NCBI GenBank assembly: GCA_052168235.1
Contig: JBQLZK010000019.1
Coordinates: forward strand, 33,955-97,954
DNA length: 64,000 nucleotides
Origin: Thainema sp.
Lineage (GTDB): Bacteria; Cyanobacteriota; Cyanobacteriia; Phormidesmidales; Phormidesmidaceae
Reading direction: 5' to 3'
Below are positions 21,623 to 48,936 of the stretch, piece by piece. The notes under the pieces are model-generated. The model saw nothing but the letters and a program-made list of their open reading frames with translations, did no database searches and was not told the DNA's origin. Both the position numbers and the translations under genes were made by a program. Each line of letters opens with the position of its first letter. Within the stretch, counting starts at the first letter, position 1.

Positions 21623-24600
21623 ATGAACTCCGTTGCCATTGTGGGATTATCCTGCCGCTTTCCAGGTGCAGACAGTCCCGATGCGTTTTGGCACTTGCTC
21701 CAGCAGGGGCAAGATGCCGTTACGCGCATACCCCACGATCGCCAAAATCCTGATTTAGCAGGTGATTCAGGCGCTAGTTTAAATCCTGCTTTTAGCGATC
21801 AAACGAATAGCTTTAAGGCTGATTGGGGTGGTTTTTTGTCGGAAATCGATCAGTTTGATGCCGATTTCTTTGGCATTTCGCCGCGTGAAGCCGAACAGAT
21901 TGATCCCCAGCAGCGGTTGCTGTTGGAAGTTACCTGGGAAGGCCTAGAGCAAGCTGCGATCGCACCCAGCACGTTGGCAGGTAGCAACACCGGAGTATTC
22001 ATTGGCATTAGCCACAGTGACTATCGCCACGCGCTTCAGCAGCAAGGAACTCCAAATCCCTATAGCGGAACGGGTACAGCCTTATGCATCGCCGCCAATC
22101 GAATTTCCTATCGGCTAAATTTACGAGGGCCAAGCTTAGCGGTAGATACGGCCTGTTCGTCTTCGCTGATGGCTGTGCATTTAGCGTGCCAGAGCTTGAA
22201 GACAGGCGAGTGTGGTCTTGCGATCGCAGGTGGTGTCAATCTCAGGCTGTCGTCTACACTGACGCGGGTGTTTCAGCAGGCGGGCATGATGGCCGCCGAT
22301 GGTCGCTGCAAAACCTTTGATGCCCAAGCAGATGGCTACGTCCGCTCCGAGGGATGCGGCGTAGTGGTACTCAAGCGACTGGCGGATGCGGAACGAGATT
22401 GCGATCGCATTTTTGCGGCGATTCGGGGTTCTGCCGTCAACCAGGACGGGCTGAGTAATGGGCTAACTGCTCCGAATGGCCCAGCTCAGCAGGCGGTTAT
22501 TCGACAGGCTCTAGTCCAGGCAGGTGTTGCCCCCCATGCCGTCAGCTATGTGGAAGCTCACGGGACTGGTACGGCTTTGGGCGATCCGATTGAGGTGAAC
22601 GCCTTAAAATCAGTGCTGATGGAGGGGCGCTCGCCGCAGCAGCCCTGCGCGATTGGCTCGGTCAAAACCAACATTGGTCATCTCGAAGCCGCCGCAGGCA
22701 TGGCCAGCCTGATTAAAGTTGTGCTAGCGCTCCAGCACCGCCAGATTCCGCCCCATCTGCATCTACAGCAGCTTAATCCTCGCATTGACCTATCGGAAAC
22801 GCCGTTCTTTATTCCGCAACAGCTACAGCCGTGGCAGCTACCCGCAGGTGAAAACGATTACATAGCAGGCATTAGCGCTTTTAGCTTTGGCGGAACCAAT
22901 GCTCATATAATCATGTCTGCGGCTCCTGAACTACCCGTTCAGTTGCCCAAAACATTACCAGGACAGTCATCGACAGAAGTACAGGCAGGCTCTGCGTGGC
23001 ACCTACTAATGCTGTCAGCCAAATCCAAACCCGCTTTGTCGGCTTTGGCTAGGCGCTACGCTCAGTTCTTGCAGGCGCAACCTGATGTGAGCCTAGACAA
23101 CCTCTGTTTTACCGCTCACACGGGACGTTCAGCGTTTCCCCATCGCTGTGCAATTGTGGCAAACTCGGTGACGGATCTGCGATCGCAACTCTCTTTAGCA
23201 ACTCAAGGCCAGGCAGGTGAGCAAATTCTACAGGCAAAAGCAGCGCGACGGCAACCTGCGATTACGTTTCTATGCACGGGACAGGGCGCTCAGTACGTGG
23301 GCATGGGTCGCCAGCTTTACCAAACGCAGCCCACGTTTCGCCGCATTTTGCAGAACTGCGATCAGTTCTTACGTACAGAGTTTGATCAGCCGTTACTCAG
23401 CCTGCTGTATCCCGAAACAGAGACAGAGGCTAGCGCGGCGCAGCTCAACCAAACGGCCTATACACAGCCGGCTCTGTTTGCCCTAGAGTACGCTTTAGCC
23501 GAACTGTGGCGCGAGTGGGGCGTTGTGCCCCAGCAGGTGATTGGACACAGCCTCGGTGAGTATGTGGCCGCCTGCGTGGCGGGAGCTTTGAGCTGGGAGG
23601 ATGGCCTACGGCTGGTCACTGTGCGATCGCATTTAATGCAAAGCCTACCAGCTAACGGCACGATGGCAGTGGTCTTTGCAGCGGCTGAGACTATACAAAC
23701 AGCAATCGATCAGGTTGGAAGTGCAGTTGCGATCGCAGTCGTCAACAGCTCCCGCAATACAGTTATTGCTGGCGTTAAAGCAGCGGTTGATCAGGTACTA
23801 CAGGTACTAGCTGAGCAGAGCATTCGTAGTCGCGCTCTACCCGTTTCCCATGCGTTTCACTCGCCGCTGATGGAGCCGATTTTGGCCAAATTCGAGGCAG
23901 TAGCCGCTTCGATCACCTATCAAACGCCTCACATTCCAATGATTTCCAATGTGACAGGGCAGCCGCTGACCTCTCCACCCGATGCCGCCTATTGGTGCCA
24001 GCATCTGCGACAGACCGTTCAGTTTGCGGCTGGTGTGGAATATTTGGCGACTCAAACTAGTCTCCAGAACAGTCAGCAGAACAGCCTATGGGTCGAAATT
24101 GGCCCCCACTCCACACTGCTGGGCATTGTGCAGCGGGACTATCCAGCCGCTGTGCAGCCCTGGCTACCGTCTTTGGAACGGGGAGAGAAAGACGAAGCGG
24201 TGATCTTGCGATCGCTAGGTCATCTCGCGACGCAGGGAATTCAAGTGGACTGGACTGCATTTCATCAGCACCGTTCGTGCCAGCGCATTGCCCTGCCAAC
24301 CTATCCGTTTCAGCGTCAGCGTTACTGGTTTCAACCTATGCAGCCTGCTCAACCCATCATGCCATCTTCTAATCATTCTTCCGCCCATTCTTCTGTACCG
24401 CCCGTTGCACCAATTCAGGAAAAGCTCCAGACTTTGGTTGCTGGCTTACTCAAGGTTTCGACTGAGCAAGTGGATACTCAAGCCCCATTTCTGGAAATGG
24501 GAGCGGATTCGATTGTGTTGATTGAAGCCGTGCAGGCAATTGAAGCCAACTTTGGCATCAAGGTCACGATTCGTCAGTTTTTTGAAGACCTCAGGACGAT

Positions 24601-27600
24601 TGAAGAACTAGCTGCATTTATCGCAGCATCTACTGCTCAGCGGGAAGTATCACCCAGCGTGAGTTCCGATACCGTACCGACTACTTCAGATCAGGCTCAA
24701 CTGTCTAGCTCTAAAGTGCAAGCTAATTCTCGATCGCAGTCTGGATCTACTGAAACTCTTAGCAATCCTCAATCTTCACAGCCCGTCAATCCGCCTCTGA
24801 TCCAGTCTATACCCACCAATCGCGGGGCTACAGCGTTAGAGCGCGTTGTGACTCAACAGCTTCAAGTCATGGCGCAGCAGCTCGCGATTTTGCAACAGGC
24901 GGATTCAGCATTGGCTACAGCAGTTACAGCACCAGATACCCTGCCAAATGCTTTGTCAAATGAAGCATCTATTACAGCACCAGCGCCCAAATCAAGCTCT
25001 GTTTCACCTTCTATCCCACAGCCAACTACCGTAGCTCGTCCGTCACCCAAATCGGTGTCTGCCGAAACAACTGCGGCGCTGACCGCTCAGCAACAGCAGC
25101 ATCTCCAGTCACTGATTCAGCGCTACACTCAGCGCACGGCAGGATCAAAACGGCGAAAGGAGATGAGCCATCCTTACTTGGCGGATAGTCGTGCCTGTGC
25201 TGGATTTCGGCGCTCCACCAAAGAAATGCTGTATCCGATTGTCGGCATCCGTGCTGCTGGATCGCGGTTATGGGATGTTGACGGCAATGAGTACATTGAC
25301 ATAACGATGGGGTTTGGGGTGCATTTGTTTGGTCATGCCGCTCCGTTTATTCAGTCTGCTTTGGAAGCCCAGTTACAGAAAGGCACTCAAATTGGCCCCC
25401 AAGCCGAACTAGCGGGCGAGGTGGCGCAGCTCATTCATGAGCTAACTGGCATGGAACGCGTTACCTTTGCTCAGTCGGGCACAGAGGCCGTCATGACGGC
25501 GTTACGACTAGCCCGCACAGCAACGGGACGCACCAAGATTGCTCGCTTTGCCCAGTCCTACCACGGTCATTTTGATGGAGTCTTAGCGCGATCGCAATCG
25601 GTTGGGGATGGACAGCAAACGGTGCCGCTTGCGCCAGGTATTCCGTCCGGTATGGTCGAGGATGTGCTGGTGCTGGAATATGGCAATCTGCGATCGCTCC
25701 AGGTGCTGCAAGATCACGCTCATGAACTGGCTGCTGTCCTGGTGGAGCCAGTGCAGAGCCGTCGCCCTGATGTACAGCCCCGTCAGTTTCTGCACGATCT
25801 CCGGCAGCTCACGGTTGATCACGGTATCGCGCTAATTTTTGATGAGATTATTACTGGATTTCGGATTCATCCCGGTGGTGCACAGGCTTGGTTTGGCGTT
25901 GAAGCCGACATAGCCACCTACGGCAAAGTCCTAGGAGGCGGTATGCCGATTGGCGTGATTGCTGGCAAGGCGCAGTACATGGACGGGATCGACGGTGGCC
26001 TGTGGCACTACGGTGACGATTCCTATCCTAGTGCTGAGCGGACGTTTTTTGCCGGAACGTTCTGTAAGCCTCCCCTGGCGCTGGCCGCCGCTAAAGCCGT
26101 CTTGCTGCATCTGAAGCAGGAGGGTGCCCAACTCCAGGAACAGCTCAACCAGCGGACGACCCAGCTCGTGCAGCGCTTGAATTCATTCTTTGACCAGGCT
26201 GAAGTACCCATTCGGATGGTGCAGTTTGGCTCCCTCTTCCGCTTTGCCTTTACCGGAAACTATGACTTGCTGTTTTATCACCTGATTGAAAAAGGCATCT
26301 ACATCTGGGAAGGCCGCAATTGCTTTCTGTCAACGGCTCATACCGAGGCTGACGTCGAGCGAATTATTCAAGCTGTTCAAGCATCCGTCGCTGAGATGCA
26401 GGCCGGAGGTTTTCTGCCGGGAAAGTCTTTAACGGTAGTGGAAACGCTGCCCCTGACGCCCAGCCAGCAGGAGATTTGGCTGCTCGCTCATCTGCAAACC
26501 GCCGCCTCTCTCGCCTATAACGAATCCATTTGGTTAGATCTGCGCGGCAAGCTAGAGGTTTCGGTTTTACATCGGAGTTTGCAACAGGTTGTCAATCGTC
26601 ATGAGGCGCTGAGAACCGCTTTCCTACCGTCCGGAGAGGCGCAGCAGATTCAGCCTCAGGTTACGGTGGATTTGCCGGTGATCGATTTTACGTCTGATTC
26701 ATCGTCAGCTTCACCCTCAGAGCAGGCAACTCGTCTGCAAGCGTGGCTGCAAGCTGAACAGCAACAGCCCTTTGACCTGACACAGGCACCACTCCTGCGC
26801 GTGCAGTTACTGAAGCTGGCCGAGCAGCATTACGGCCTGGTGCTGACCGTTCATCATATTGTGGTGGATGGCTGGTCAACGCAGGTTTTGCTGGAGGAGA
26901 TGACGGCTTTTTACAACGCTGCTGTCCAGGAACGCACTGTCGAAGAAAGTGCGATCGCACTTCCTCCACCTGCCTCTTATCGCGCTTATATTCAGCGCCA
27001 GTGCCAAACTCCGGCTCAAGATAAAGCCTACTGGCGCGATCAGTTTGCTCAAGGACTGCCTCGCTGGCGTTTACCAACTGAGTCTACAGCCGATCAGCAG
27101 GCTGACTACCGAGGCGATCAGCTCCAGTATGAACTGCCCACTAACCTATATCAAACTATTCAAACCTGGAGCGGTCAGCAGGGCTGTACACCGTTCATGA
27201 CCTTGCTGGCAGGGTTTAACTTGCTCTTGCATCGGTGTAGTAAAGTATCGGATTTAATCGTTGGTATTTCTGTTGCTGGACAGGCACAGCAAGATAATCC
27301 AAACCTGGTTGGGCACTGCGTCAACGTCCTGCCGCTGCGGAGCCAGATTCAGCCTGATCAATCACTGATCAATTATCTGCACAACTTGCGGACTCGTTTA
27401 TTGGACAGCTACGACCACGTCAATTATTCGTTCAGCCAGCTTGTGCGATCGCTACAGATACCGCGCGATCCGCGCACACCTATCTTGCCTGTGCTGTTCA
27501 ACCTTGATCCATCGCTGCCTGTACCGTCCCTGCATGATTTAGCAGTCAATGTTGTGCCCCAGCCGCCTGTCTATGTCCGCTGGGATTTAACCTGGCATCT

Positions 27601-27859
27601 GGTCGAAATGGACAATACCTTGCAGTTGAACTGTCTCTACGGTGCTAGCCTGTTTGAGCCAGCGACCTTACAGAGGTGGATTGCTGAGTATGTGGCGCTT
27701 CTACGAGGAATGATTCAGAATCCTCAGGTTTCGATTCAAGACCTGGATCAGCAGCTAGATCATCTGACCAAAACCCAGTCCCGACAGCTACAGGTTACAT
27801 TAACCCAAACCAACCGCCAGAAGCTGGAATTGATCCATCGACGAGCCGTTCAGCCGTAG
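21623..27859 (+). CDS. Hybrid PKS/NRPS: KS-AT-ACP-aminotransferase(class III)-C
   Basis: KS DTACSSS/HGTGT/KTNIGH; AT GHSLG and HAFHS (malonyl); ACP GADS; aminotransferase [14 protein letters not shown] domain HHIVVDG. Confidence 0.93.
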
Positions 27860-27877
27860 ATCAAGTCGAATATATAC

Positions 27878-27926: not shown

Positions 27927-27973
27927 TGAGTTTTAAATTGCGCGTTGCTTAACCCAACCTACAAAGATTAGTC

Positions 27974-28966
27974 CTAGGTTTCTACCAAAACTTTCCTCAG
28001 ATCGTGAACTTGGTACTGCTTTATGGATCTGAAATCGCCCTTGCCAGAGTTATTCAGCGTTGTCACTGAGCCGCTGACAGCAACCGTAGCGTGATAGGAG
28101 CCAGAAACTTGTCCATCTGGGCTAGTAAAGTCAATTTGAACCTGAGTGTGCGATCGCACTTCATCTACGTCAATGATTTGGCCGGATTGACGATAGTCGC
28201 ACCAAGCCCAGCCCTCCTGCATGAGGATTTCGCGCTCGACAATTTGAGCCATTGGCGGTAGGCCAGCCCAGCCCCGATAGCAGTCTCGCAGTGCCGTCAC
28301 GGGCTGATCCTGACGCGTGAGAATCTGGGCGGTTTCGAGGTCTAGGTGGCCCCAGTAGCGACCTGTGGGAAAGTCGATCAGCGTGGGGGCTAGCCGATGG
28401 CTGCCGATGTGGCTCGTACGCCAAATCCGAGTGCGATCGCGTTCAGCGTCGGCCTGTAACGCAGCATAGATCGGCTCACCAAACTTGCCGCAGCAGATAT
28501 CCAGTTCGGCGTGGGTACAAATCAGCAAGTCGCGCATTGTATTGTCCTGACGATAAGCATCAAAGGCCGCTAGCTGGTCAGGATGATGCAGCGCTTGCAC
28601 CAGCGGAATGACCTGATCATTGGGTACCCAAAACTCTTGTTTTTCGTAGGTGGCGAACTGTTCCGAGGGTCGCTGCCAGTACAGAATTCGGCGATAGCCT
28701 GGTTTAGAGTAGTTGGGATCAGGTGCGATCGCGAGACAGCGCCCTTTGGCGCTCCGCTGAGCGGCCTGCTGCAAAATTGGCATCAGATCTTTTGGGAAAT
28801 CATCGGCCTGTAGCGCATTGCGACCCCACGGTGGAGCAACTTCAATCACTAAATAGCGATCGCATTCTGAAGCCGAGCCAATCGGATCTTCACCGTTCTG
28901 CTTGGAAAAGACCGCACAGAGATCTGCATCTGGACACGTTGTAACGGATTCGGACGAACTGATCAT
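27974..28966 (-). CDS. Sucrase/ferredoxin-like 2Fe-2S protein
   Basis: LICTHAELDICCGKFG, WRTSHIGSHRLAPT, YRGW. Confidence 0.88.
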   Translation of the reverse strand: MISSSESVTTCPDADLCAVFSKQNGEDPIGSASECDRYLVIEVAPPWGRNALQADDFPKDLMPILQQAAQRSAKGRCLAIAPDPNYSKPGYRRILYWQRPSEQFATYEKQEFWVPNDQVIPLVQALHHPDQLAAFDAYRQDNTMRDLLICTHAELDICCGKFGEPIYAALQADAERDRTRIWRTSHIGSHRLAPTLIDFPTGRYWGHLDLETAQILTRQDQPVTALRDCYRGWAGLPPMAQIVEREILMQEGWAWCDYRQSGQIIDVDEVRSHTQVQIDFTSPDGQVSGSYHATVAVSGSVTTLNNSGKGDFRSIKQYQVHDLRKVLVET

Positions 28967-29175
28967 AGGGCTTCAATTAATGATTGAGGACGAATAATTT
29001 ATCCTTGATGTGGGCAAATGGCTATTTGGCATGTGTTTAGCGCAGCTATGGGATCCCCCGCTGTTGCCGCCCCTTTTTTAAGGGGGCTGTTCTAACTCTG
29101 GCCCAAAGCCCCCTTTTTTCTAGGCGAAGCCATGCCCAAAGGGCTACAGCTAGATAATGCTCGACCACGGTGAAA

Positions 29176-30147
29176 CTAGGTTTGGCCATTCGTAGGTTCA
29201 GCATCCGTTAGATACTTAAAAAGATCATCTAACACGGCGTTGGCAGCCAGGATGCCGTTGCCGAGAAACCAGGTATCAAATGGAACTTGGTAGACGCGAC
29301 CACGTTGGACAGCATCAAGCTGATTCCATAGCGGATGATTCATGATTTGCTGTGCCATTGAATCTTGCGGATTGTCTTGAAAGTAAAAGATCACATCTCC
29401 ATCCATTGCCGGAATGGCTTCAATACTGACCGTTTCGTAAAATTTATCTTTATTTTGGGCTTCCGGTCGGGGGAGTCCAACCTGCTCCAAAACATAGCCA
29501 CAAAATGAGTCTTTCATATACAATCGCACCTGATCAGGCCTGAATCGCAGGACTGAAACGGTTGTTGTATTCAAGCGTTCACCCATTTGCTGCCGAAAGG
29601 CTTGAATACGAGCTTGATAGTCTTGTAGTAACTGTTCGGCTTGCTCAGTCTTGCCCAGCGCTTCTGCGTAGTTCAACAAGGCATCTGCTCGGTTCTCAAC
29701 CAGTACCGTAGGTGCAATCTGAGACAGCGCACCGAAAAGCTGCTGATGGTCGTCCACAGAGCTGAGAATCAAGTCTGGATTAAGCTGCAAAATCGTTTCT
29801 AGATTAGGCTGAGCGGCATGACCAACGTTCTTGATCCCGGCGGTTTTGTTAGCTAGATAGTCTGGAAAATCGCCGTAGTCCGACCGCTGGGGAAATCCAG
29901 CATAGGTTGAGCCAATGGGTTTTGTGCCAAGTGCGATCGCACTATCTAATGCGCTTTGAGCCAACACCACCACTCGTTCAGGAGAATCTGGCACAACCGT
30001 TTCTCCCAAAGCATGTTCAACAACTCGGCCATTTTCTGGCTGCACAGGCTGTGAATCGATTGTTTGGCGACCGCTACAGGCGATCACCAACAGCAGCGGC
30101 ATAGCCACCAGCAGAATCTGCTTTAGGAGTTGAGGCAGCCTAAACAT
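29176..30147 (-). CDS. Fe-siderophore ABC transporter substrate-binding lipoprotein (FecB/FhuD)
   Basis: Lipobox VIAC, PERVVVL, PNLETILQLNPDLI, LSQIAPTV, LWNQLDAVQRGRV. Confidence 0.92.
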   Translation of the reverse strand: MFRLPQLLKQILLVAMPLLLVIACSGRQTIDSQPVQPENGRVVEHALGETVVPDSPERVVVLAQSALDSAIALGTKPIGSTYAGFPQRSDYGDFPDYLANKTAGIKNVGHAAQPNLETILQLNPDLILSSVDDHQQLFGALSQIAPTVLVENRADALLNYAEALGKTEQAEQLLQDYQARIQAFRQQMGERLNTTTVSVLRFRPDQVRLYMKDSFCGYVLEQVGLPRPEAQNKDKFYETVSIEAIPAMDGDVIFYFQDNPQDSMAQQIMNHPLWNQLDAVQRGRVYQVPFDTWFLGNGILAANAVLDDLFKYLTDAEPTNGQT

Positions 30148-30265
30148 AGATACTCTCCGCATCGGCAAGATTGAGAATAGACGTGACATGCAGGCGATGA
30201 TTGCTGGTAAAGATAACCAAACACAAAGCCATCCATCATCGCTCTTTGAGAACCACTGGAATATA

Positions 30266-30284
30266 AGTGAGAATATCTATCAAT
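30266..30284. promoter_or_regulatory. Putative Fur box upstream of the binding-protein gene
   Basis: AGTGAGAATATCTATCAAT, matching the other boxes in the cluster. Confidence 0.65.
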
Positions 30285-30337
30285 TGGGTTTTCTTTCGTA
30301 CCTTAGAGGGATTGCTGTGAGCTTGTCAAGAACCTGA

Positions 30338-33941: not shown

Positions 33942-34988
33942 ATGCAACATGCGCCACGTCAACGATTAGGGCAGATGCGCCGCCGCACCATGCAGGTGTC
34001 TCCCACCGCCCTAGTTACGACTACGTTCCTCAACCCAGCATCACTGCCGCTCGTTGTGCAGCCGAATCAAACGGCTCTCCAATTGTCCGAGTGGGCTGCT
34101 ACCCAAACGGACTGGATTGAAGATCAGCTCTACCGCTACGGGGGAATTCTGTTTCGCGGGTTTGAGGTGGGTGGCACTGAGGGATTTGAGCAGTTTTTGC
34201 GATCGCAGGGTGGTGATTTGCTGGACTATCGCTACCGCTCGACACCGCGCACCCAGGTCAGCGGCAAGGTTTATACCTCGACCGAGTATCCAGCTAGTCA
34301 ATCGATCCCGCTCCATAACGAGATGGCCTACAGCCGCGAGTGGCCGCTCAAAATTGCCTTCTTCTGCACCCAACCCGCTGCCGCTGGCGGAAACACGCCG
34401 ATTGCCGATAGCCGACGGGTATTTCAGTCGCTGCCGAGGGAAATGTGCGATCGCTGGCAGCAGCGCGGCATTCGCTACGTTCGCAACTATGGTGGCAGAT
34501 TGGATCTACCCTGGCAGACGGTCTTTCAAACTGAAGACCCTGCCGAGGTGGAAGCCTTCTGTCAGGCCAAGGGCATGACTTGGGACTGGCTAGACCCTGA
34601 TCGTCTCCGCACTCAGCAAATCTGCCAAGCCACAGTCAATCATCCCGACACCGGGGAATCTGTCTGGTTTAATCAAGCTCACCTGTTCCACATTTCTAGT
34701 CTCGATCCCACCGTTCGCGCTGGCTTACTGGCCGACTTAGCGACAGCAGAACTGCCGCGTAATGCCTACTTTGGTGATGGTGCGCCACTGGATGAGCCAG
34801 AGCTAGCCACGATTCGGGCGGCTTACCAAGCGGCTACAGTGGAATTCACTTGGCAAGCTGGAGATGTGCTGCTACTGGACAACCTACTCGTTGCCCACGG
34901 GCGGACTCCCTTCCAGGGCGCTCGGCAAGTGCTAGTCGGCATGGCGCAGCCACACAGCCTGCCGTTTGAACTCCAATTTAGCCTCTAG
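33942..34988 (+). CDS. TauD/TfdA Fe(II)/2-oxoglutarate dioxygenase, SyrP-like aspartyl beta-hydroxylase
   Basis: RSTPR, VYTSTEYP, HNE, WFNQAHLFH, DNLLVAHGR; adjacent to the interface-A(Asp) module. Confidence 0.9.
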   Translation: MQHAPRQRLGQMRRRTMQVSPTALVTTTFLNPASLPLVVQPNQTALQLSEWAATQTDWIEDQLYRYGGILFRGFEVGGTEGFEQFLRSQGGDLLDYRYRSTPRTQVSGKVYTSTEYPASQSIPLHNEMAYSREWPLKIAFFCTQPAAAGGNTPIADSRRVFQSLPREMCDRWQQRGIRYVRNYGGRLDLPWQTVFQTEDPAEVEAFCQAKGMTWDWLDPDRLRTQQICQATVNHPDTGESVWFNQAHLFHISSLDPTVRAGLLADLATAELPRNAYFGDGAPLDEPELATIRAAYQAATVEFTWQAGDVLLLDNLLVAHGRTPFQGARQVLVGMAQPHSLPFELQFSL

Positions 34989-35036: not shown

Positions 35037-35084
35037 GTAAGTTTGTTCATTTTAAACCGATTAACATTAATCCTATTCGTAATC

Positions 35085-39758: not shown

Positions 39759-39760
39759 TC

Positions 39761-42700
39761 ATGAAGATTACTAATCTGGATGACCTATACCAGTTGACCC
39801 CGATTCAACAGGGGATTCTCTTCCACAGCCTAATGGTTCCCCACGCTGGCATGTACTGTATCCAGCTCAGCTTTATAATTCGTGGAGCTTTGCATGTTGA
39901 TGCTTTCCAACAAGCTTGGCAGCAGGTACTAGTGCATCAGCCTGTCCTGCGAACTGCCTTTCTCTGGGAAGGTCTGGAGCAGCCGCTGCAGGTGGTGCAG
40001 CGACAGGTGCAACTACCGTTCATCCAGCTAGATTGGCGCGATCAGTCGGAAGCCCAGCAGCAGGTAAGCTTAGCAGCATGGCTCCAGCAGGATCGGCAGC
40101 AGGGGTTTACGCTGAATCAGCCACCGCTGATGCGATTAGCATTGATTCAGCTAGGCGACCAGGAGTACCGCTGCGTCTGGAGTAAGCACCACCTACTGCT
40201 AGATGGCTGGTCAACTAACTTGGTACTGAAGCAGGTCTTCGTCTGCTATGACGCACTGCGTCAGGGACAGCAGCCCGTACTAACACCGCCACCGCTCTAC
40301 CGTGATTACGTGGCTTGGCTGCAAAAGCAAGATCTAGCTAAGGCCGAAACCTTTTGGCGACAAGAGTTACAGGGAGTCACCGCTCCTACACCGCTAGGGA
40401 TTGATCGAAAGCGCGATCGCAGATTTACGCCGGTTGCCGATACGGCTAGTGCTGCTCTCACGCTTGACCCAAACTGTACCGCTAACTTGAAAAGCTTCGC
40501 GCGGCAGCATCAGCTCACCTTAAACACCCTAGTGCAGGGCGCTTGGGGAATTTTGCTGAGCCGCTACAGTGGTGAGTCAGACGTGGTCTTTGGCGTTACG
40601 TCGGCAGGACGACCACCGGATTTAGCCAATTCCGAATCGATGGTGGGTGTGTTTATCAACACGCTACCAACTCGCGTACAGGTCGAATCCAATCAGTCGC
40701 TCATTCCCTGGCTGCAAGCGCTACAGAATCAGCAGGCAACCCTGCGCCAGTATGAATATAGTCCGCTGATGCAAGTCCAGCAGTGGAGCGAAATTCCGCA
40801 GGGTACACCGCTGTTTGAAAGCATTGTGGTGTTTGAAAACTATCCAATTGATCCGACGCTGCGGCCAGATGCTCAGTCGTCTACTCGTGCCTTGACCGAC
40901 CAGGATAACGCGGCCTGGATCAGCGATGTTCAAAGTACGGAGCGGACGAACTATCCGCTGACCCTTATCGCCATGCTCGATCCAGATGCAGTACCGGGTG
41001 GGCTGCTGCTCCAGGTACTGTATGATCAGCAGCGGTTTGCAGCGGATGTGATGGAGCGCTTGCTAAACCATCTGCATCAGCTACTAATTGGCATGATGGA
41101 GCAGCCCACGTCGCAGTTGGCCGACTTACCCTGGCTGACGGCAGCGGAGCAGGAACAGCTACTCACCTGGGGAGCAGCCAAAGCCGAGTTCCCAGTGACG
41201 CCAGGACTGATTGAGCGCTTTACAGCTCAGGTACAGCAGCGACCAACTGCGATCGCACTGACCTTCTCTCATAATGGTAACGAGCAGTCGCTCACCTATC
41301 GTGAACTTGATCAGCGTTCGAACCAGCTAGCGCATTATCTGCGGCAGCAGGGAGTAGCGGCAAATCAGCTGGTGGGACTGTGCTTACCGCGATCGCTGGA
41401 TCTGATTGTTGCTATTTTGGCGATTCTGAAGGCGGGTGGAGCCTACGTGCCGCTTGACCCCAGCTATCCAGCAGAGCGCTTACGCTGGATTCTAGATGAT
41501 GCCCGTCCGGCTGTGGTAGTGACCCAAACTGACTATTGCGATCGCTTAGGATTGGCTGATGATGGTGGCGTCTGTTTAGACCGGAATGCAGCCGCAATTG
41601 CCCAGCAGTCAATCCTGCCGCCGCTGAAGCTACCGCAGCCGGATCAGTTAGCCTATGTAATTTACACCTCTGGCTCTACTGGCAAACCGAAAGGCGTCCT
41701 GGTGCGCCATGCCCAAGTTGTGCGGCTGTTTACGGCCACCGAAGCGCAGTTTAATTTCGCAGCTACCGACGTTTGGACGCTGTTCCACTCCTATGCCTTT
41801 GATTTTTCGGTCTGGGAAATTTGGGGCGCACTGCTTTACGGCGGACGGCTGGTGATCGTGCCCTATGAGGTCAGCCGTTCACCTCAAGATTTCTATCAGC
41901 TACTGAAGCGGAAAAAGGTGACGGTACTGAATCAAACTCCTGCCGCTTTTCGGCAGTTGATGGCAGTAGATGCAGTAGCGGTTACAACTGATATGCTGAG
42001 TGCTTCTAATGCTGATGGTGAGTTGGATGTAGCCACTGCATCAGATTTGACGCTGCGCTGGGTAATCTTTGGCGGGGAAGCGCTGGAGCTGAACAGTTTG
42101 CAGCCCTGGTTTGCTCGACATGGCGATCGCACACCGCAGCTCGTCAATATGTACGGCATTACCGAGACCACCGTGCATGTCACCTGGCGATTGCTGTCTC
42201 AAGCCGATACGGCTGAATCAGCTAGCCTCATTGGTCAACCCATCCCTGATTTGGCAGTCTATGTGCTGGATCAGCAGCAGCGGCTGGTGCCAATGGGTGT
42301 CCCCGGTGAGCTGTATGTGGGTGGGGCCGGAGTGGCTCAGGGCTACTTGAATCGCCCTGAGCTGACGGCAGATCGATTTGTTCCTAACCCGTTCCAGTCA
42401 GGCCAAGCCAGTTCAACTCAGCCAGTCCTCTACAAAACAGGCGATTGCGTTCGTCTGCACAGCACAGGTGACCTGGAATATCTCGGTCGGCTCGACCAGC
42501 AGATCAAGCTGCGCGGCTTCCGGATTGAGCTGGGTGAAATTGAGGCTGCCTTCAATCAGCATCCAGCCGTACAAACCTCAGCCGTGCTGCTGCGACAGGA
42601 TCAACCGGATCAGTCGCGACTGGTAGGCTACTGGATACCGCATCCCACCTCAGATTCAGTGACCGACGGGGATTTACGCCAGTGGCTACAGGCCAAACTG

Positions 42701-43177
42701 CCTGACTATATGGTGCCTGCGGCTTTTGTGCAGCTAGAGGCATTTCCGCTGACAACGAACGGTAAGCTCGATCGCCGCCGCTTACCTGCCCCTAGTAGCG
42801 CTCGTCCAGCCCTCCAGGTAGCCTATACTCAGCCTCAAAGCGAGCTGGAGCAAACTATTGCGGCAGTTTGGCAGCGGATTCTTCAGCTTGACCGCATTGG
42901 CATTCACGATAGCTTTTTTGATCTCGGTGGCAACTCGCTGCTTCTACTTCAACTGCATCATCAGCTTCAAACTGCGCTCCAGGCAAAGTTCGAGCTAATG
43001 GATCTATTCCGCTACCCGACGATTCATGCGCTAGCTGGGTTTCTGAATCGCTCAGATTTACAGGCAGATACAGAAGCCGAGCAACTGCGATCGCACCAGC
43101 AAAATAAGCGAGAACAAGGCAAAGCCCGACTCCACCAGCGCCGTCAACAGCGACGCGATCAGCAAAAAATCGGTTAA
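39761..43177 (+). CDS. NRPS: C(DCL-type)-A(Thr)-T
   Basis: YQLTPIQQGILFH, HHLLLDG; A-domain code DFWNIGMVHK (Thr); T domain GGNSL; basic C-terminal docking tail. Confidence 0.92.
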   Translation: MKITNLDDLYQLTPIQQGILFHSLMVPHAGMYCIQLSFIIRGALHVDAFQQAWQQVLVHQPVLRTAFLWEGLEQPLQVVQRQVQLPFIQLDWRDQSEAQQQVSLAAWLQQDRQQGFTLNQPPLMRLALIQLGDQEYRCVWSKHHLLLDGWSTNLVLKQVFVCYDALRQGQQPVLTPPPLYRDYVAWLQKQDLAKAETFWRQELQGVTAPTPLGIDRKRDRRFTPVADTASAALTLDPNCTANLKSFARQHQLTLNTLVQGAWGILLSRYSGESDVVFGVTSAGRPPDLANSESMVGVFINTLPTRVQVESNQSLIPWLQALQNQQATLRQYEYSPLMQVQQWSEIPQGTPLFESIVVFENYPIDPTLRPDAQSSTRALTDQDNAAWISDVQSTERTNYPLTLIAMLDPDAVPGGLLLQVLYDQQRFAADVMERLLNHLHQLLIGMMEQPTSQLADLPWLTAAEQEQLLTWGAAKAEFPVTPGLIERFTAQVQQRPTAIALTFSHNGNEQSLTYRELDQRSNQLAHYLRQQGVAANQLVGLCLPRSLDLIVAILAILKAGGAYVPLDPSYPAERLRWILDDARPAVVVTQTDYCDRLGLADDGGVCLDRNAAAIAQQSILPPLKLPQPDQLAYVIYTSGSTGKPKGVLVRHAQVVRLFTATEAQFNFAATDVWTLFHSYAFDFSVWEIWGALLYGGRLVIVPYEVSRSPQDFYQLLKRKKVTVLNQTPAAFRQLMAVDAVAVTTDMLSASNADGELDVATASDLTLRWVIFGGEALELNSLQPWFARHGDRTPQLVNMYGITETTVHVTWRLLSQADTAESASLIGQPIPDLAVYVLDQQQRLVPMGVPGELYVGGAGVAQGYLNRPELTADRFVPNPFQSGQASSTQPVLYKTGDCVRLHSTGDLEYLGRLDQQIKLRGFRIELGEIEAAFNQHPAVQTSAVLLRQDQPDQSRLVGYWIPHPTSDSVTDGDLRQWLQAKLPDYMVPAAFVQLEAFPLTTNGKLDRRRLPAPSSARPALQVAYTQPQSELEQTIAAVWQRILQLDRIGIHDSFFDLGGNSLLLLQLHHQLQTALQAKFELMDLFRYPTIHALAGFLNRSDLQADTEAEQLRSHQQNKREQGKARLHQRRQQRRDQQKIG

Positions 43178-43198
43178 TCCAACTCCCTCTCTCTGCGG

Positions 43199-43339: not shown

Positions 43340-43402
43340 CTCTGCGGGAGAGGGAGCTGAGGGTGAGGGCAATCCAGTTTAATAAACAGTAAAGAACAGA
43401 CA

Positions 43403-46400
43403 ATGGCAACTCATTTCACAGGCTTAGAAATCGCGGTGGTCGGCATGGTTGGGCGCTTTCCGGGTGCTAGCAACGTGACCGAATTTTGGCAAAATCTGCA
43501 GGCTGGAGTCGAATCCGTTTCTCACTTTAGTGATGAAGAACTGCTGGCTGCTGGTACTGATACCGAGACGCTGCGTCACCCTAACTACGTCAAAGCTCGC
43601 GCTATTTTGGATGACGCAGAGTGGTTTGATGCCGCGTTTTTTGGCTTGAGTCCTAGAGATGCCGAAATTCTTGATCCACAGCAGCGTGTCTTTCTAGAGT
43701 CAGCCTGGGAAGCGCTGGAAACGACTGGCTATAGCCCCCAAACGTTTCCGGGCACGATTGGCGTATATGGTGGGGCAACTCTGAGCGGCTACCTGTTTAA
43801 TCTCTATAACCACCGCCAGCTCACGGAGACCGTGGGGCAGTTTCCGCTGGTTTTGGGGAATGGGCGGGAATTTCTCACCACCCGCGTTTCCTACCTGCTG
43901 AATCTGCGTGGGCCAAGTCTGAATGTGCAGACTGCCTGCTCAACCTCCCTCGTTGCCGTACATCTGGCTAGCCAAGCGTTGCTCAGTGGCGAGTGCGACC
44001 TGGCTTTGGCTGGCGGTGTTTCGATTCGCTTGCCATTGAAAGGGGGATACTGGTATCAAGATGGTGGAATTTCATCGCCTGATGGGCACTGCCGCGCTTT
44101 TGATGCCAAGGCTCAGGGCACTGTGGGCGGTAGCGGCATTGGGTTGCTGGTGCTGAAGCGGCTAGAAGAGGCCATCTGCGATCGCGATACTATTTATGCT
44201 GTGATTAAAGGCTCAGCCCTTAACAACGACGGTGCGACCAAAATGAGCTTTACTGCGCCCCGCATTGAAGGGCAGGCCGAGGTGATTCAAGCGGCGCAGC
44301 AGATGGCGGAGGTAGAGTCGGAAACGATTCAGTATATTGAAGCGCATGGCACGGGCACGGCTCTGGGCGATCCAATTGAAATTGCGGCGTTGACGCAGGC
44401 GTTTCAGACGGCGCAAACCGGATACTGTGCTCTGGGGGCAGTCAAAACTAACATTGGTCATCTCGATGCAGCGGCTGGCGTTGCCGGACTGATTAAGACG
44501 ATTCTGGCTCTCCAGCATCGGCAGATTCCGCCTAGCCTGCATTTTGAAACGCCTAATCCACAGATTGATTTTGCCCACAGCCCGTTCTATGTCAATACCC
44601 AGCTTGCTGATTGGCCTGCCAATGGCTCACCGCGTCGGGCTGGCGTCAGTTCCTTTGGTATGGGCGGCACCAATGCCCATGTCATTCTGGAAGAAGCACC
44701 AATGCCTCTACCGACCAGTGGATCGCGTCCCTGGCAACTGCTGCTCTGGTCAGCCAAAACAGATACGGCTTTGGAGAGCGCCACCCAGCAGCTTGCCACC
44801 CGTCTGCAAGAACAGCCTGACCTAGACTTGGCCGATGCCGCTTATACGCTCCAGGTTGGTCGCCAAGGATTTGTCCACCGCCGGATGGCAGTCTGTTGCG
44901 ATCGCACTGACGCAGTCGCGGCTCTCACGAACCTGGATCAGCGAGTCGCTACTCAAACGGCATCTGATCATCCGCCTGCTGTGGTGTTTTTATTCCCCGG
45001 TCAGGGAACACAGCATGTCGGCATGGGGCGCGATCTGTATGTAACAGAACCCGACTTTCGACGCATTGTCGATGACTGCGCCGAGCAGCTACTGCCGCAT
45101 CTGGGCCTGGATTTACGACAGGTGCTGTATCCTGCGGCTGACCAAACAGAATGGGCCACGGCTCAACTGCAGCAAACTGCGATCGCACAGCCAGCGCTGT
45201 TTGTGGTTGAATATGCCCTAGCGCGTCTGTGGCAGACGTGGGGCGTACAGCCGCAGGCCATGATCGGTCACAGTCTAGGCGAGTACGTTGCGGCCTGTCT
45301 GGCAGGTGTGTTTCAGCTTGAGCAGGTGTTGCTTCTCGTTGCTCAGCGAGGGCGGCTGATGGAGCAGCAGCCAGCGGGCGCAATGCTCAGCGTTGCCCAG
45401 TCTGCCGATCAGGTGATCACTTATCTGCCGGAGTCGCTGACGCTGGCGGCTGATAATGCCCCTAATCTTTGCGTTGTGGCTGGCACAGCGGCAGCTATTG
45501 AGCAGTTTCAGGCTCAGCTTCAGGCTCAGGGAATTGCCTGTCGCTGGCTGAAAACCTCCCACGCCTTCCATTCTCCTTTAATGGATGGAGCCTTAGCTCC
45601 GTTCCGCCAGCAGCTCGCGCAGGTACAGCTCAATTCGCCGCAAATCCCCTGGGTTTCCAACTTAACTGGCACCTGGATTACGCCTGAGCAGGCAACCAGT
45701 CCCGACTACTGGGTGCAGCACCTGCGCCAAACCGTTCGCTTCCGCACCGGACTTCAAACCTGCTGCCAAAATAATGCTCCTCTCCTGCTAGAAGTCGGCC
45801 CCGGACGGACGTTGAGCACGCTGGCACGTCAGCAACCGCAGCTAAATTCAGCCCAAACTGTCACGTCTATGCGCCATCCTCAGACGGTTCAGGCTAATCC
45901 GTCTGGCGCATCCAGTCCGACCAATCCAGCCGATCAATCCGACATTGCCTGCCTGCTAACTGCACTGGGGCAGCTCTGGTTGCAGGGTGTCTCAATTGAC
46001 TGGTCAGGGTTCTACGCCCATGAGCAGCGGCGACGGGTTCCGCTCCCCACCTATCCCTTTGAACGACAGCGCTACTGGATTGATGCTCCCCAGCCAGAGC
46101 AGGCTCCTGCTTCGACTACCCCAAATTTGACGAAGAACAGCGATGTAGCCAACTGGTTCTATCAACCAACCTGGACGCGATCGCAACTTGTTCAGCCTTA
46201 TTCTTCAACTACCACACTTTCGGACGTTAAGTCGGAAACGGTCGAATGGCTGCTGTTTGTCGATGATGATCCGCTGGTAAATGCGATCGCAGAATTACTC
46301 CGGCAGCGGGTTAACGCCATCACGGTTCAAATTGGCGACCACTTTAGCTGTGTGGATGAGCATACTTACACGCTAAATCCGCATCGTCGCGAGGATTACA

Positions 46401-48157
46401 CCCAGCTACTAAACGCGTTGGGAGCAAATCGGCCAGCCCGAGTGCTGCACGGCTGGAGCTTTGGTGTAGCAGATCGGTCGGATAGTTGTTTGCCCGATAA
46501 TCCAGAGATTCAGGCGCGAGGCTGTTATAGTCTCCTGTTCCTGACTCAGGCAATGGCGCAGGGCGGCTGGAACCATCCCTTACAAGTCACGGTATTGACC
46601 AGCAGCATATTCGATGTAATCGGCACGGAGTCTTTCATACCGGCACAGGCAACGCTGCTAGGCCCCTGTACCGTCATTCCACAGGAATATCGCTCCATCA
46701 CCTGTCGCGTTGTGGACTGGTTGCGATCGCACAATCACAATCAATCTGACCATTTACATACACTGCTCCAGGATGTGCTAGCCGATTCCCCTGAGCGAGT
46801 CGTCGCCTATCGCCAGGGACAGCGCTGGGTACAGCGGTTTGAGCCTGTTGCTTTACCAACCGCACCCGCCACGCAAACAAAGCTGCGTTCCAGCGGTGTA
46901 TATCTGATCACGGGTGGCCTCGGCAAAATTGGCCTCACCCTAGCGACTGAACTGGCGCAGACCTATCAGGCTCAGCTCGTACTGCTCAGCCGTCGCCCCT
47001 TCCCGCCGCGATCGCAGTGGGATGCAGTTCTGTCAACGGCTCAATCGAATGATGCAACAGCTACTACTATTCGACAACTACAGGCACTGGAAGCTGGTGG
47101 AGCCGAGGTTTTAGTCCTATCGGCTGACGTTGCAGATGTTGAGCAGCTACAGGCAGCTATTGCCCAAGCCGAGGCGCAGTTTGGCCCGCTCAATGGCGTG
47201 ATTCATGCGGCAGGAGCGGTGGGTGAGCAGGCGTTTCGGCTGATTCAGGAGACGGGGCTAGCCGAACTAGAGCAGCAGTTTCGCGCTAAAGTGCAAGGAG
47301 TGCAAATCCTGGCACAGGTGCTGCGGGATAAACCACTGGACTTCTGTCTGCTCTGCTCGTCGCTGGCTTCAATTCTCGGTGGACTGGGCTTTGCGGCCTA
47401 TAGTGCGGCTAACCAGTTTATGGATGCATTTGCCCATCAGCAAAACCGCCACAGCACCTTCCCCTGGATCAGCGTCAACTGGGACGGCTGGCGTTTTCCA
47501 GCTCAAGCGGATGTCCAATCAGAAGCGGATGCCCAATCAGAATCAGACGACGCGATTGGGAAAGCGATCGCAGAATTGGCGCTCACGCCGGAGGAAGGTG
47601 TTGCGGCTTGGCAGCGCATCCTGGCCTACACCGTAGCATCCCAAATCGTTGTCTCAACCGCAGATTTATCCGCACGACAGCAGCAGTGGCTAGATATGCC
47701 AGCACCAGCCGTATCTGCCCCCACAGCGAACCAAACGCTCTATGCTCGACCCTCGCTGTCTGGAGCCTACGTCGCGCCGCGCAATTCCGTAGAACAGGCG
47801 ATTGCCGACGTGTGGCAGTCATTTTTAGGTATCGATAGGATTGGCGTTCACGATAGCTTTTTTGAACTGGGTGGTCATTCCCTGCTGGCGACGCAGATTA
47901 TTGCTCACCTGCGCCAGCATTTCCAGGTTGATATTCCTCTACGCGCCCTGTTTGATGATCCCACCGTTGCCGGACTGGCAAATGCGATCGCACTTGCCCA
48001 AGATCAACCAGCAATGCCATCAATTCCCGCTCTGCCCCGCCCCGATGTCTCTACGGCGCAGCATCAGCTTGAGCACCTGGATCAGCTCTCGGATCAGGAT
48101 GTCGATGATCTGCTGCGCCAATTGACTCAGCAACTTGCTAACCAACCCACACACTAA
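43403..48157 (+). CDS. Type I PKS: KS(NRPS-fed type)-AT-KR-ACP
   Basis: QTACSTS, HGTGT; AT GHSLG/HAFHS; KR YLITGGLGKIG, YSAAN; ACP GGHSL; acidic C-terminal helix. Confidence 0.93.
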   Translation: MATHFTGLEIAVVGMVGRFPGASNVTEFWQNLQAGVESVSHFSDEELLAAGTDTETLRHPNYVKARAILDDAEWFDAAFFGLSPRDAEILDPQQRVFLESAWEALETTGYSPQTFPGTIGVYGGATLSGYLFNLYNHRQLTETVGQFPLVLGNGREFLTTRVSYLLNLRGPSLNVQTACSTSLVAVHLASQALLSGECDLALAGGVSIRLPLKGGYWYQDGGISSPDGHCRAFDAKAQGTVGGSGIGLLVLKRLEEAICDRDTIYAVIKGSALNNDGATKMSFTAPRIEGQAEVIQAAQQMAEVESETIQYIEAHGTGTALGDPIEIAALTQAFQTAQTGYCALGAVKTNIGHLDAAAGVAGLIKTILALQHRQIPPSLHFETPNPQIDFAHSPFYVNTQLADWPANGSPRRAGVSSFGMGGTNAHVILEEAPMPLPTSGSRPWQLLLWSAKTDTALESATQQLATRLQEQPDLDLADAAYTLQVGRQGFVHRRMAVCCDRTDAVAALTNLDQRVATQTASDHPPAVVFLFPGQGTQHVGMGRDLYVTEPDFRRIVDDCAEQLLPHLGLDLRQVLYPAADQTEWATAQLQQTAIAQPALFVVEYALARLWQTWGVQPQAMIGHSLGEYVAACLAGVFQLEQVLLLVAQRGRLMEQQPAGAMLSVAQSADQVITYLPESLTLAADNAPNLCVVAGTAAAIEQFQAQLQAQGIACRWLKTSHAFHSPLMDGALAPFRQQLAQVQLNSPQIPWVSNLTGTWITPEQATSPDYWVQHLRQTVRFRTGLQTCCQNNAPLLLEVGPGRTLSTLARQQPQLNSAQTVTSMRHPQTVQANPSGASSPTNPADQSDIACLLTALGQLWLQGVSIDWSGFYAHEQRRRVPLPTYPFERQRYWIDAPQPEQAPASTTPNLTKNSDVANWFYQPTWTRSQLVQPYSSTTTLSDVKSETVEWLLFVDDDPLVNAIAELLRQRVNAITVQIGDHFSCVDEHTYTLNPHRREDYTQLLNALGANRPARVLHGWSFGVADRSDSCLPDNPEIQARGCYSLLFLTQAMAQGGWNHPLQVTVLTSSIFDVIGTESFIPAQATLLGPCTVIPQEYRSITCRVVDWLRSHNHNQSDHLHTLLQDVLADSPERVVAYRQGQRWVQRFEPVALPTAPATQTKLRSSGVYLITGGLGKIGLTLATELAQTYQAQLVLLSRRPFPPRSQWDAVLSTAQSNDATATTIRQLQALEAGGAEVLVLSADVADVEQLQAAIAQAEAQFGPLNGVIHAAGAVGEQAFRLIQETGLAELEQQFRAKVQGVQILAQVLRDKPLDFCLLCSSLASILGGLGFAAYSAANQFMDAFAHQQNRHSTFPWISVNWDGWRFPAQADVQSEADAQSESDDAIGKAIAELALTPEEGVAAWQRILAYTVASQIVVSTADLSARQQQWLDMPAPAVSAPTANQTLYARPSLSGAYVAPRNSVEQAIADVWQSFLGIDRIGVHDSFFELGGHSLLATQIIAHLRQHFQVDIPLRALFDDPTVAGLANAIALAQDQPAMPSIPALPRPDVSTAQHQLEHLDQLSDQDVDDLLRQLTQQLANQPTH

Positions 48158-48162
48158 CTCCT

Positions 48163-48936
48163 ATGATCTCCGCCTACTCCACTAATCAAGCTACAAACTG
48201 GATTCGCTCTGAACAGCTCAATCCCGATGCGGCCCTCCGCTTATTCTGTCTGCCCTATGCTGGCGGTAATGCTCGCAGCTTTCGTCACTGGTCGGCTGCT
48301 CTGCCTGATGATGTAGACGTTTGCGCCATTGAGCTACCGGGACATGGCACTCGCTTAACTGAACCGCCGATTAGCGATCTGGATGAGCTAGTCACTGCGA
48401 TCGCACATGTCATCCAGCCGTTTCTAGATCGTCCCTTCGCTCTATTTGGTCACAGCATGGGGGCACTCCTTAGCTTTGAGCTAGCTCGCCATTATCGTCG
48501 CCATAATCAGCCGATGCCCACCCATCTGTTTGTCTCCGGCCACCGAGCACCGCAACTCCCTGACCCAGAGCCTCCCATTTACGCATTACCGGAGTCTGAG
48601 TTTCGCGATAAGCTGCGGCGGCTCCAGGGTACACCCCAAGCTGTGTTAGACAACGATGAATTTATGGCATTGCTTTTGCCTGTGTTACGGGCCGACTTCA
48701 CGGTTTGTGAAACGTACAGCTATCGGCCTGAACCACCTCTATCGTGCCCAATTACGGCTTTTGGTGGTACTCAGGATGCAGCTACGCGTCGAGGCAGACT
48801 GCGAGCCTGGCGCTATCAAACTGACGCACGATTCACTAAGCATGTGCTACCCGGACATCATTTTTTCATCCACTCTGCCGAAACAGAACTCTTACAACAC
48901 GTTCGCACGGGCTTGGATCTAGCGACCATCCGCTAA
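48163..48936 (+). CDS. Stand-alone thioesterase (type II-like)
   Basis: LFCLPYAGG, FGHSMG, LRADF, PGHHFF. Confidence 0.92.
   Translation: MISAYSTNQATNWIRSEQLNPDAALRLFCLPYAGGNARSFRHWSAALPDDVDVCAIELPGHGTRLTEPPISDLDELVTAIAHVIQPFLDRPFALFGHSMGALLSFELARHYRRHNQPMPTHLFVSGHRAPQLPDPEPPIYALPESEFRDKLRRLQGTPQAVLDNDEFMALLLPVLRADFTVCETYSYRPEPPLSCPITAFGGTQDAATRRGRLRAWRYQTDARFTKHVLPGHHFFIHSAETELLQHVRTGLDLATIR

Follow-up and report, generated by a model that had tools for sequence, protein, structure and literature searches.

How often can a growing chain pass through one and the same aspartate module, and can its return be read from the sequence? The question is raised by a siderophore-type hybrid cluster, recognised by Pfam domain order and by reading of the open reading frames (ORFs), in which a fatty acyl-AMP ligase (FAAL) is combined with polyketide synthases (PKS) and nonribosomal peptide synthetases (NRPS). 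It lies in a 64,000-nucleotide stretch of Thainema sp. DNA (the window; assembly GCA_052168235.1, contig JBQLZK010000019.1, positions 33,955 to 97,954; G000:C19:33955-97954 in our labelling, where G000 is the source genome, C marks a contig and L a fetched locus), and its predicted product is a beta-hydroxy-aspartate (OH-Asp) lipopeptide siderophore. Two catalytic condensation (C) domains of the cluster, that at the end of PKS1 and a free-standing C protein (free C), have no adenylation-thiolation (A-T) unit of their own, and a single module, NRPS1, has no catalytic C domain. Short docking tags suggest that the chain is sent back through this single OH-Asp module. The genes listed below are best read as a line that runs from FAAL/ACP through PKS1-C, OH-Asp, Thr, PKS2 and the free C and back to OH-Asp, a reading to which we give a rough probability of 0.55 (ACP, acyl carrier protein; KS, ketosynthase; AT, acyltransferase; KR, ketoreductase; E, epimerisation domain; TE, thioesterase).

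19422..21233, + strand: FAAL, lipid starter (Pfam AMP-binding; NCBIfam fatty-acid--AMP ligase, 3e-136)
21267..21557, + strand: free-standing ACP without a C-terminal docking tail (GLDS serine motif; NCBIfam PKS carrier-domain matches; FAAL and PKS1 flanks kept in relatives)
21617..27859 (start 21617 or 21623), + strand: PKS1, KS-AT-ACP-aminotransferase-C (Pfam domain order; HAFH in the AT)
27749..27856, + strand: tail following the PKS1 C domain (tail profile E 6.3e-5, profile positions 3-56)
32222..33799, + strand: free C, 525 aa (Pfam Condensation 7.7e-112; intact HHxxxDG)
about 32279-32344, + strand: N-terminal basic helix of the free C (from its residues)
33680-33796, + strand: C-terminal tail of the free C (tail profile E 4.1e-15)
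33942..34988, + strand: predicted TauD-family Asp beta-hydroxylase (Pfam TauD PF02668, 1.8e-48; basic motif at the N-terminus)
35043..39758 (interface domain 35085-36500), + strand: NRPS1, interface-A(Asp)-T-E with a COM-like acidic end (domains and motifs)
39761..43177, + strand: NRPS2, C-A(Thr)-T with a basic tail, its C domain of the type that follows E (domains and motifs)
43403..48157, + strand: PKS2, KS-AT-KR-ACP, with an acidic C-terminal tail at 47990-48154 (domains; tail pattern)
48163..48936, + strand: free-standing type-II-like thioesterase, 257 aa (Pfam Thioesterase 1.5e-51)

The cluster encodes five C-family domains, in the order C, C, interface, E, C, and no further one. The HHxxxDG motif is kept in all three catalytic C domains (PKS1, free C and NRPS2), reading MHHIVSDGWS in the free C. 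The first domain of NRPS1 is C-like and fused directly to the A domain, with LPALCADAAT instead of HHxxxDG. A replacement of the LPALCAD type is the consensus of 62/62 aligned interface domains, no HH motif was found in the NRPS1 interface domain or in the genome's two other interface domains, and the bit scores of interface domains and ordinary C domains are bimodally distributed. The last C-family domain of NRPS1 is an epimerase (HHLVIDGVSW, EGHGRE, FNYLGQ; 48% identity to the two other E domains of the genome). An earlier reading of this DNA from its letters alone (the sequence-only reading) had counted three catalytic C domains and one interface domain, which is right, and had left the epimerase unmentioned; the peptides and domains that it quoted are all present verbatim where it had placed them. 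Its two A domains, Asp and Thr, are likewise the only amino-acid A domains in the cluster, with pockets DLTKVGHVGK (NRPS1) and DFWNIGMVHK (NRPS2). These were read by eye and appear to match the Asp and Thr codes. Both AT domains carry HAFH, which we take to be a malonyl signature. From its domain order, PKS1 is predicted to make a beta-amino fatty acyl chain and to condense it onto an amino acid. In the window, the interface domain, TauD and the Asp A domain each occur once, and this TauD is 50-71% identical to 59 relatives from such OH-Asp clusters.

That the Asp module requires a C domain in trans had been proposed in the sequence-only reading and is borne out by a survey of 83 sequences, drawn from 80 loci fetched around TauD relatives (10 kb each side), the window, the Heron Island J contig and the second cluster of the source genome. 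All 82/82 interface domains start their own protein, with at most 113 residues upstream, and the catalytic C domain therefore always acts in trans. Subtypes of the C domains were assigned by BLAST within the genome with context labels. The comparison is with the genome's second cluster (G000:C15:66734-98980, outside the window), which is collinear and cyanochelin-like. The free C is 50% identical to both C domains that precede TauD in that cluster, the PKS1 C domain is divergent (33-34% identity to the free C and to the same two pre-TauD domains), and the NRPS2 C domain is 50.5% identical to the C domain that follows E there.

What directs two of these C domains to the same module would be a basic tail. 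In nearly all of the 80 TauD loci, the protein that lies just 5' of TauD has a C domain at its end, followed by a tail such as RQKLKMTKRKSI, and TauD itself begins with ...KKLGxxxRKAVxLS. The 61 pre-TauD tails fit a loose pattern in 53 cases and a stricter one in 46, and a 30-residue tail-only profile gives the consensus QQQIEQEQELKQASRQKLKKAKRKAIRGSK. In the window, the free C ends in LQKLKRTRRQTHSSSHS and TauD begins with MQHAPRQRLGQMRRRTMQVS; across 60 relatives (alignment A2) the TauD N-terminal consensus is xxLGxxxRKxV, with R14 in at least 90%. A loose pattern applied to the TauD loci also matched the basic tails of NRPS-to-PKS junctions falsely, and profiles were used instead. A 60-residue profile built from the 61 tails of other genomes, with the relatives L078 and L079 excluded, was run against the 3987 ORFs of at least 200 aa in the source genome. 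It found the free C (E 4.1e-15), the second cluster's own pre-TauD C protein (E 9.4e-14) and PKS1 (E 6.3e-5, aligned over profile positions 3-56), and in ordinary cis C domains the match was confined to about the first 32 positions. With the tail-only profile the same three proteins occupy ranks 1-3 of 3987, and a C-terminal tail pattern matches 6/3987 ORFs, 3 of which are the three C-terminated synthetase proteins.

The specificity of the tail was also seen in an independent set of loci fetched via the free C (L001-L077; 353 ORFs). A full-length C-terminal tail occurs in 19/353 ORFs, and all 19/19 are followed by TauD and/or an interface domain (16 by TauD first, 3 directly by the interface domain). 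The basic tail that the sequence-only reading had pointed out on PKS1, the free C and TauD is a widespread, conserved and specific tag of proteins that would serve an interface-domain Asp module, not a chance resemblance, with a weaker copy on PKS1. There are hints that its partner is the interface module rather than TauD. Two tail-bearing C domains are present for one interface module in this cluster; no clear case of a second tail beyond the number of interface domains was seen in the 80 other TauD loci with that loose pattern, judged by eye. Complex prediction without alignments, in which the 47 C-terminal residues of PKS1 were combined with TauD and the interface domain, gave a score of 0.20 against a mark of 0.34, which counts neither for nor against an interaction. 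Distant matches of the PKS1 C domain (L165-L169, 28-35% identity) were tried as comparators for its tail and were uninformative, as none is a C domain at the end of a protein: in four, 586-701 further residues follow, and in Sorangium L166 the C domain is internal to a 5691-aa protein. As side observations on tail arrangement, in L015, L048, L061 and the Sorangium cellulosum locus L166 a tail-bearing protein directly precedes an interface-domain protein, and no TauD gene intervenes. In four fused C-TauD proteins (L118:14296-20052, G000:C15:82952-88876, L091:8563-14304 and L114:14341-20073) a single copy of the basic motif, for example NRQKFKFVKPKAVSLP, lies in the linker; split systems have two copies, one C-terminal in the C protein and one N-terminal in TauD.

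The second element of the wiring is the junction between PKS2 and the free C. PKS2 ends in LEHLDQLSDQDVDDLLRQLTQQLANQPTH, without a fused thioesterase, as the sequence-only reading had stated, and the separate 257-aa thioesterase gene follows. The free C carries the helix ADLSPTEKRSRLAALLKQ at residues 20-38, within about 45 residues upstream of its first C motif; such an N-terminus may be too short for a beta-hairpin docking domain of about 60-70 residues. The same kind of junction recurs in collinear clusters, where a subunit ended by a carrier protein and an acidic tail (LAELEELSEEE...LL) is followed by a subunit with LSPxKRxLLxxxLKQ before its C domain (L091, L108, L114, L118, L140). The cyanochelin C cluster is one of these (L118), and in it a 518-aa free C, TauD and an interface-A-T protein form the OH-Asp module. 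The product of that cluster has been structurally solved, and its free C joins beta-Ala to OH-Asp (10.64898/2026.07.24.740629). Across all loci, the upstream tail has a net charge of -4 or lower in 24/39 pairs with a downstream helix, compared with 96/593 other adjacent pairs, and the 15 exceptions among the helix pairs mostly have a non-synthetase gene in between. In the source genome, 2/3987 ORFs match the pattern for the acidic C-terminus and 2/3987 that for the N-terminal helix, and the two resulting pairs are the PKS of the second cluster with its adjacent NRPS, and PKS2 with the free C.

The remaining junctions of the window have partners of their own. The end of NRPS1 and the start of NRPS2 resemble, in our view, an E-to-C COM pair, and the basic tail of NRPS2 meeting the short N-terminus of PKS2 mirrors the junction from FAAL-NRPS to PKS in the second cluster. 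The only unpaired upstream docking tail, that of PKS2, matches the only unpaired downstream helix, that of the free C. The suggestion in the sequence-only reading that these two form a docking pair is strengthened by the recurrence of the junction type in collinear clusters, the second cluster and the cyanochelin C cluster among them; binding itself is a prediction. Apart from this, the free C of L114 (L114:8217-9857) has a longer N-terminal region, MKTITEFLAEL...LWVEDNRLRCSAPKN, which we take to resemble a beta-hairpin docking domain, and the same junction may use different docking classes in different clusters.

The position of the free C is not unusual. Stand-alone C proteins of about 500-550 aa just 5' of TauD are common, with about 15 in other clusters, for example in L080, L081, L091, L095, L108, L110, L114, L118, L122, L123 and L140. 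The free C sits in its canonical place, and the C domain of PKS1 is on this comparison the unusual extra feeder. The looped assembly line put forward in the sequence-only reading is upheld in its docking topology; its description of the free C as an otherwise orphan domain does not hold.

Taking these elements together, we propose the following route. The fatty acid would be loaded by the FAAL and the ACP, and PKS1 would carry out one malonyl extension and an amination to give a beta-amino fatty acyl chain. The terminal C domain of PKS1 would condense this chain onto Asp on NRPS1 (interface-A-T-E), where Asp would be hydroxylated by TauD; after epimerisation, NRPS2 would add Thr and PKS2 a reduced C2 unit. 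The acidic tail of PKS2 would then dock to the N-terminal helix of the free C which, with the same interface-module tail as PKS1, would join the chain to a new OH-Asp held by NRPS1. The resulting cycle would run NRPS1 to NRPS2 to PKS2 to free C and back to NRPS1, with PKS1-C as the lipid entry. With two C domains aimed at one Asp module and the PKS2 tail paired to the free C helix, the Asp module would therefore serve at least twice per molecule. Re-use of NRPS1 may mean that one molecule is revisited or that two copies take part. Binding of the tags to their proposed partners, the succession of steps, how many passes occur and release by the type-II-like thioesterase are all points that we infer from the sequence.

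The genes and their docking elements are conserved together. Used as a locus query, the free C retrieved generic C domains only (45-53% identity), and orthologues were found via TauD, the PKS1 C domain and a genome search. Among 173 genomes of the order, orthologues of PKS1-C (52-57% identity, E <=1e-144) occur in 8/173, including the source, and those of the free C (67-70% identity, E <=1e-170) in exactly the same 8/173, from 4 genera. The co-conservation by which the sequence-only reading had proposed to check the loop is thereby found. Neither orthologue was detected in the one other genome of the source genus among the 173. Orthologous clusters are carried by the culturable strains Leptolyngbya sp. 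Heron Island J and L. cf. ectocarpi LEGE 11479. Two sub-operons are conserved, one with the receptor and the divergent FAAL-ACP-PKS1 genes, the other with the periplasmic binding protein and ABC transporter genes and the divergent free C-TauD-NRPS1-NRPS2-PKS2-TE genes; their relative position and orientation vary between relatives, and a thioesterase gene follows PKS2 in all of them. All docking elements are kept in the five relatives compared: the PKS1 tail with the core NR(Q/L)KLE...RR, the nearly invariant free C tail QRQKLRGTRRQ(T/S)F, the PKS2 tail LDQ(L/I)DQLP..(K/Q)VD(E/D)LL and the free C helix KRS.L..LL(K/R). In one relative, the NRPS1 orthologue is present as two overlapping ORFs of 999 and 562 aa (G048:C59:40497-44952), possibly a frameshift or a sequencing error.

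Several observations weigh against the re-entrant wiring. The eight carrier genomes are kin in four genera and not eight independent events, and the tail, acidic-tail and helix patterns were drawn up after the sequences had been viewed. The PKS1 tail on its own is a weak match: with the tail-only profile it has E 0.67 (rank 3 of 3987), the PKS1 tails of the five relatives range from E 0.0022 to 7.2 (Z = 3987), and two of the five are non-significant (G048, E 0.096; G081, E 7.2). In the relative G053, PKS1 lies in three distant pieces, namely KS (C11:4804416-4806023), AT with two TAG stops (C9:9394-10443) and a 766-aa aminotransferase-C (C11:1409102-1411402), whereas the operon from the free C to the thioesterase is intact (C11:5549034-5565000). 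Because of this, the free C operon may work without PKS1; the break may reflect either a decaying lipid arm or a fault in the assembly, and G053 is listed with contamination 6. Finally, no sequence feature explains how the loop stops, and the only thioesterase belongs to the editing-like type II family, with its gene right behind PKS2. Its nearest solved relatives are RifR (2.7e-51, residues 9-238) and 3qmv/3qmw (about 3e-51), and it is predicted to be a type-II-like, free-standing alpha/beta hydrolase of about 250 aa.

On the number of passes the odds are divided. If the loop operates, there is about an even chance that the chain completes two or three full OH-Asp-Thr-ketide rounds before it is released from PKS2, and a single re-entry with release after the second OH-Asp, as in the sequence-only reading, falls somewhat short of that. 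No sequence feature would bar the chain from passing on to Thr and PKS2 again, and neither this release point nor a total of exactly two OH-Asp residues is supported by the sequence. Other pass counts or outcomes would take up the small rest. A bolder version holds that free C-TauD-NRPS1-NRPS2-PKS2-TE is an autonomous, iterative machine for OH-Asp-Thr-ketide oligomers, a closed cycle set by docking tags alone, in which three rounds would give a hexadentate tris-hydroxycarboxylate and the first unit would receive a beta-amino lipid cap from PKS1-C via the same portable tag (consensus RQKLKKAKRKAI). We consider this possible though doubtful. If true, the tag would address interface-domain modules in general, whatever the phylum, and, being transferable, could be used to engineer module re-entry.

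Four rival explanations were considered. The free C could dock to PKS2 and off-load or cyclise the chain through an amide with its own beta-amino group or with a free amine, leaving a single OH-Asp. PKS2 has no fused thioesterase and the only one present is type-II-like, the beta-amino group made by the PKS1 aminotransferase would otherwise stay free, and docking of PKS2 to the free C is compatible with this route too. However, the free C has a canonical HHxxxDG motif, 50% identity to ordinary elongating C domains before TauD and interface modules, an interface-module tail that scores strongly (E 4.1e-15) and hardly varies among relatives, and the canonical place before TauD, and we regard off-loading as unlikely. 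Alternatively, the line could be linear with one working feeder and one OH-Asp, the other C domain being a retained scaffold or a redundant alternative. The weak PKS1 tail and the broken PKS1 of G053, with the rest intact, would fit such a line, but HHxxxDG is intact in both C domains, whose orthologues in the same 8 genomes are 52-70% identical. Moreover, the free C as sole feeder would still draw its donor from PKS2 by the docking code, which leads to a loop again, and PKS1-C as sole feeder would leave the conserved helix and tail of the free C useless. A single feeder is in our estimate quite unlikely.

It is also conceivable that there are two product series, with lipidated chains started by PKS1-C and released after PKS2, and unlipidated OH-Asp-Thr-ketide oligomers made by the free C operon. 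The FAAL-ACP-PKS1 and free C-to-TE sub-operons are indeed separate and mutually mobile, and G053 keeps only the latter unit intact; yet both units co-occur strictly (8/173 genomes) and the free C loop would still be required, so that we consider two series very unlikely. Cross-talk, in which the second, cyanochelin-like line is served by the helix of the free C or the tail of PKS2, we hold to be highly improbable. That cluster contains a FAAL-NRPS, a PKS, a C-A-T-C-TauD protein, an interface-A-T-E protein, further modules, a C protein with tail, TauD and an interface-started protein of 2008 aa. Its FAAL-NRPS ends in a basic tail, its PKS has a short N-terminus and the acidic tail LDDLEGLSPEDLEALLAKS, and its NRPS starts with LSKRIAALSPAQRSLLEQKLKQ, so that the same two docking patterns occur there as in the window. 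However, the line is complete and collinear, with two TauD genes, two interface domains and an own C domain for each; as each interface module has its own C domain, the free C is not needed there, and the free C is kept inside its own operon in all 8 genomes.

The cluster is accompanied by genes for siderophore transport (Pfam: TonB receptor, periplasmic binding protein and ABC transporter).

16171..18834, - strand: TonB-dependent receptor with N-terminal AMIN domain, siderophore uptake (Pfam AMIN, Plug, TonB_dep_Rec_b-barrel; neighbour of FAAL in related clusters)
27974..31972, - strand: Suc_Fer-like protein, periplasmic binding protein and ABC transporter, three divergent siderophore transport genes (Pfam)

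The Suc_Fer-like (ferredoxin-like) gene (27974-28966, - strand) adjoins the binding-protein gene and recalls the cassette-associated ferredoxin given for cyanochelin B uptake (10.64898/2026.07.30.741596). Upstream of the receptor (window 10738-15786) are genes for a GH3-family amido synthetase, an MR_MLE enolase-superfamily protein, a Haem_oxygenas_2 protein and a dienelactone hydrolase. Directly after the thioesterase (window 48919-52813, - strand) follow a DUF6940 protein, a phytochelatin-synthase-like protein and an 808-aa NB-ARC/TPR protein; an 809-aa ORF near the Heron Island J cluster falls below the 40% identity filter against the latter.

Module re-use in NRPS/PKS lines is known, and the signal for return is rarely readable from the sequence. 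Here, re-entry would be encoded by three short docking elements, the two interface-module tails and one acidic-tail/helix pair, all conserved across 8 genomes and open to deletion or exchange, which makes programmed iteration directly testable. The wider rule is that interface-domain Asp modules head proteins and that the feeder protein bears a recognisable tail. It should improve gene ordering and structure prediction for OH-Asp siderophore clusters; without it, the cluster described here would be predicted to hold one chelating residue.

The wiring proposed for the cluster is a form of nonlinear NRPS/PKS logic and is well supported by comparison. As would be expected of a nonlinear line, more condensation catalysts are directed at a module than the module count requires (two for one), and as in OH-Asp siderophore synthetases, a stand-alone TauD beside the Asp module, an interface domain, an Asp A domain and transport genes are present. 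Neither this cluster type nor the tail motif is described in the literature searched, nor is the cluster under Heron Island J, LEGE 11479 or beta-amino fatty acid/hydroxyaspartate cyanobacterial siderophores, and the fatuamide and AMIN-receptor literature does not treat it; Galica 2021 and Reitz 2019, which lie outside that literature, may bear on these points. The interface-domain/TauD-type Asp beta-hydroxylase system, reportedly set out by Reitz et al. in 2019, shares the non-catalytic C-like head domain on the Asp module and the stand-alone TauD enzyme; as a difference, a conserved tail is present here on the upstream C protein and is repeated at the TauD N-terminus. Iturin, mycosubtilin and puwainaphycin represent initiation with a beta-amino fatty acid. 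The order FAAL-ACP-KS-AT-ACP-aminotransferase-C is the same, whereas here the terminal C domain closes the protein, with an interface-module tail where an A-T of its own would otherwise be fused.

Coelichelin is made by a nonlinear line with module re-use. Locillomycin modules 2-4 are used twice and amonabactin synthesis is also nonlinear, according to the relevant section of a review (PMC8949500). Internal modules used twice to give more residues than modules would be common to these and to the present cluster, and in the siderophore cases of the locillomycin/amonabactin/coelichelin group the repeated unit bears the chelating group, as it would here. The same review section names no separate docking-tagged condensation protein that closes the loop (PMC8949500), unlike the free C. 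In the rhabdopeptide/xenortide NRPS, iteration via promiscuous docking domains (beta-hairpin plus short linear motifs) yields product libraries (PMC9113145). There, revisiting of modules is set by docking elements and not by gene order, as it would be here, but the tags in the window are short and helical or basic, and re-entry would use a dedicated free-standing C protein acting on an interface-domain module.

Among the closest known systems are also the cyanochelin A-C clusters. These share the FAAL start, a stand-alone TauD between a C-terminated protein and an interface-A-T module, an AMIN-type TonB receptor with a transport cassette and the same types of docking junction, and the cyanochelin C cluster (L118) also has a free-standing C protein. 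As described in the reports on them, they are collinear, with two Asp modules and a heterocyclisation module (PMC12628792; 10.64898/2026.07.24.740629). The present cluster differs in having one Asp module only, in lacking a heterocycle module, with no sixth C-family domain as a candidate for cyclisation, and in combining a beta-amino fatty acid cassette with two C domains aimed at one module.

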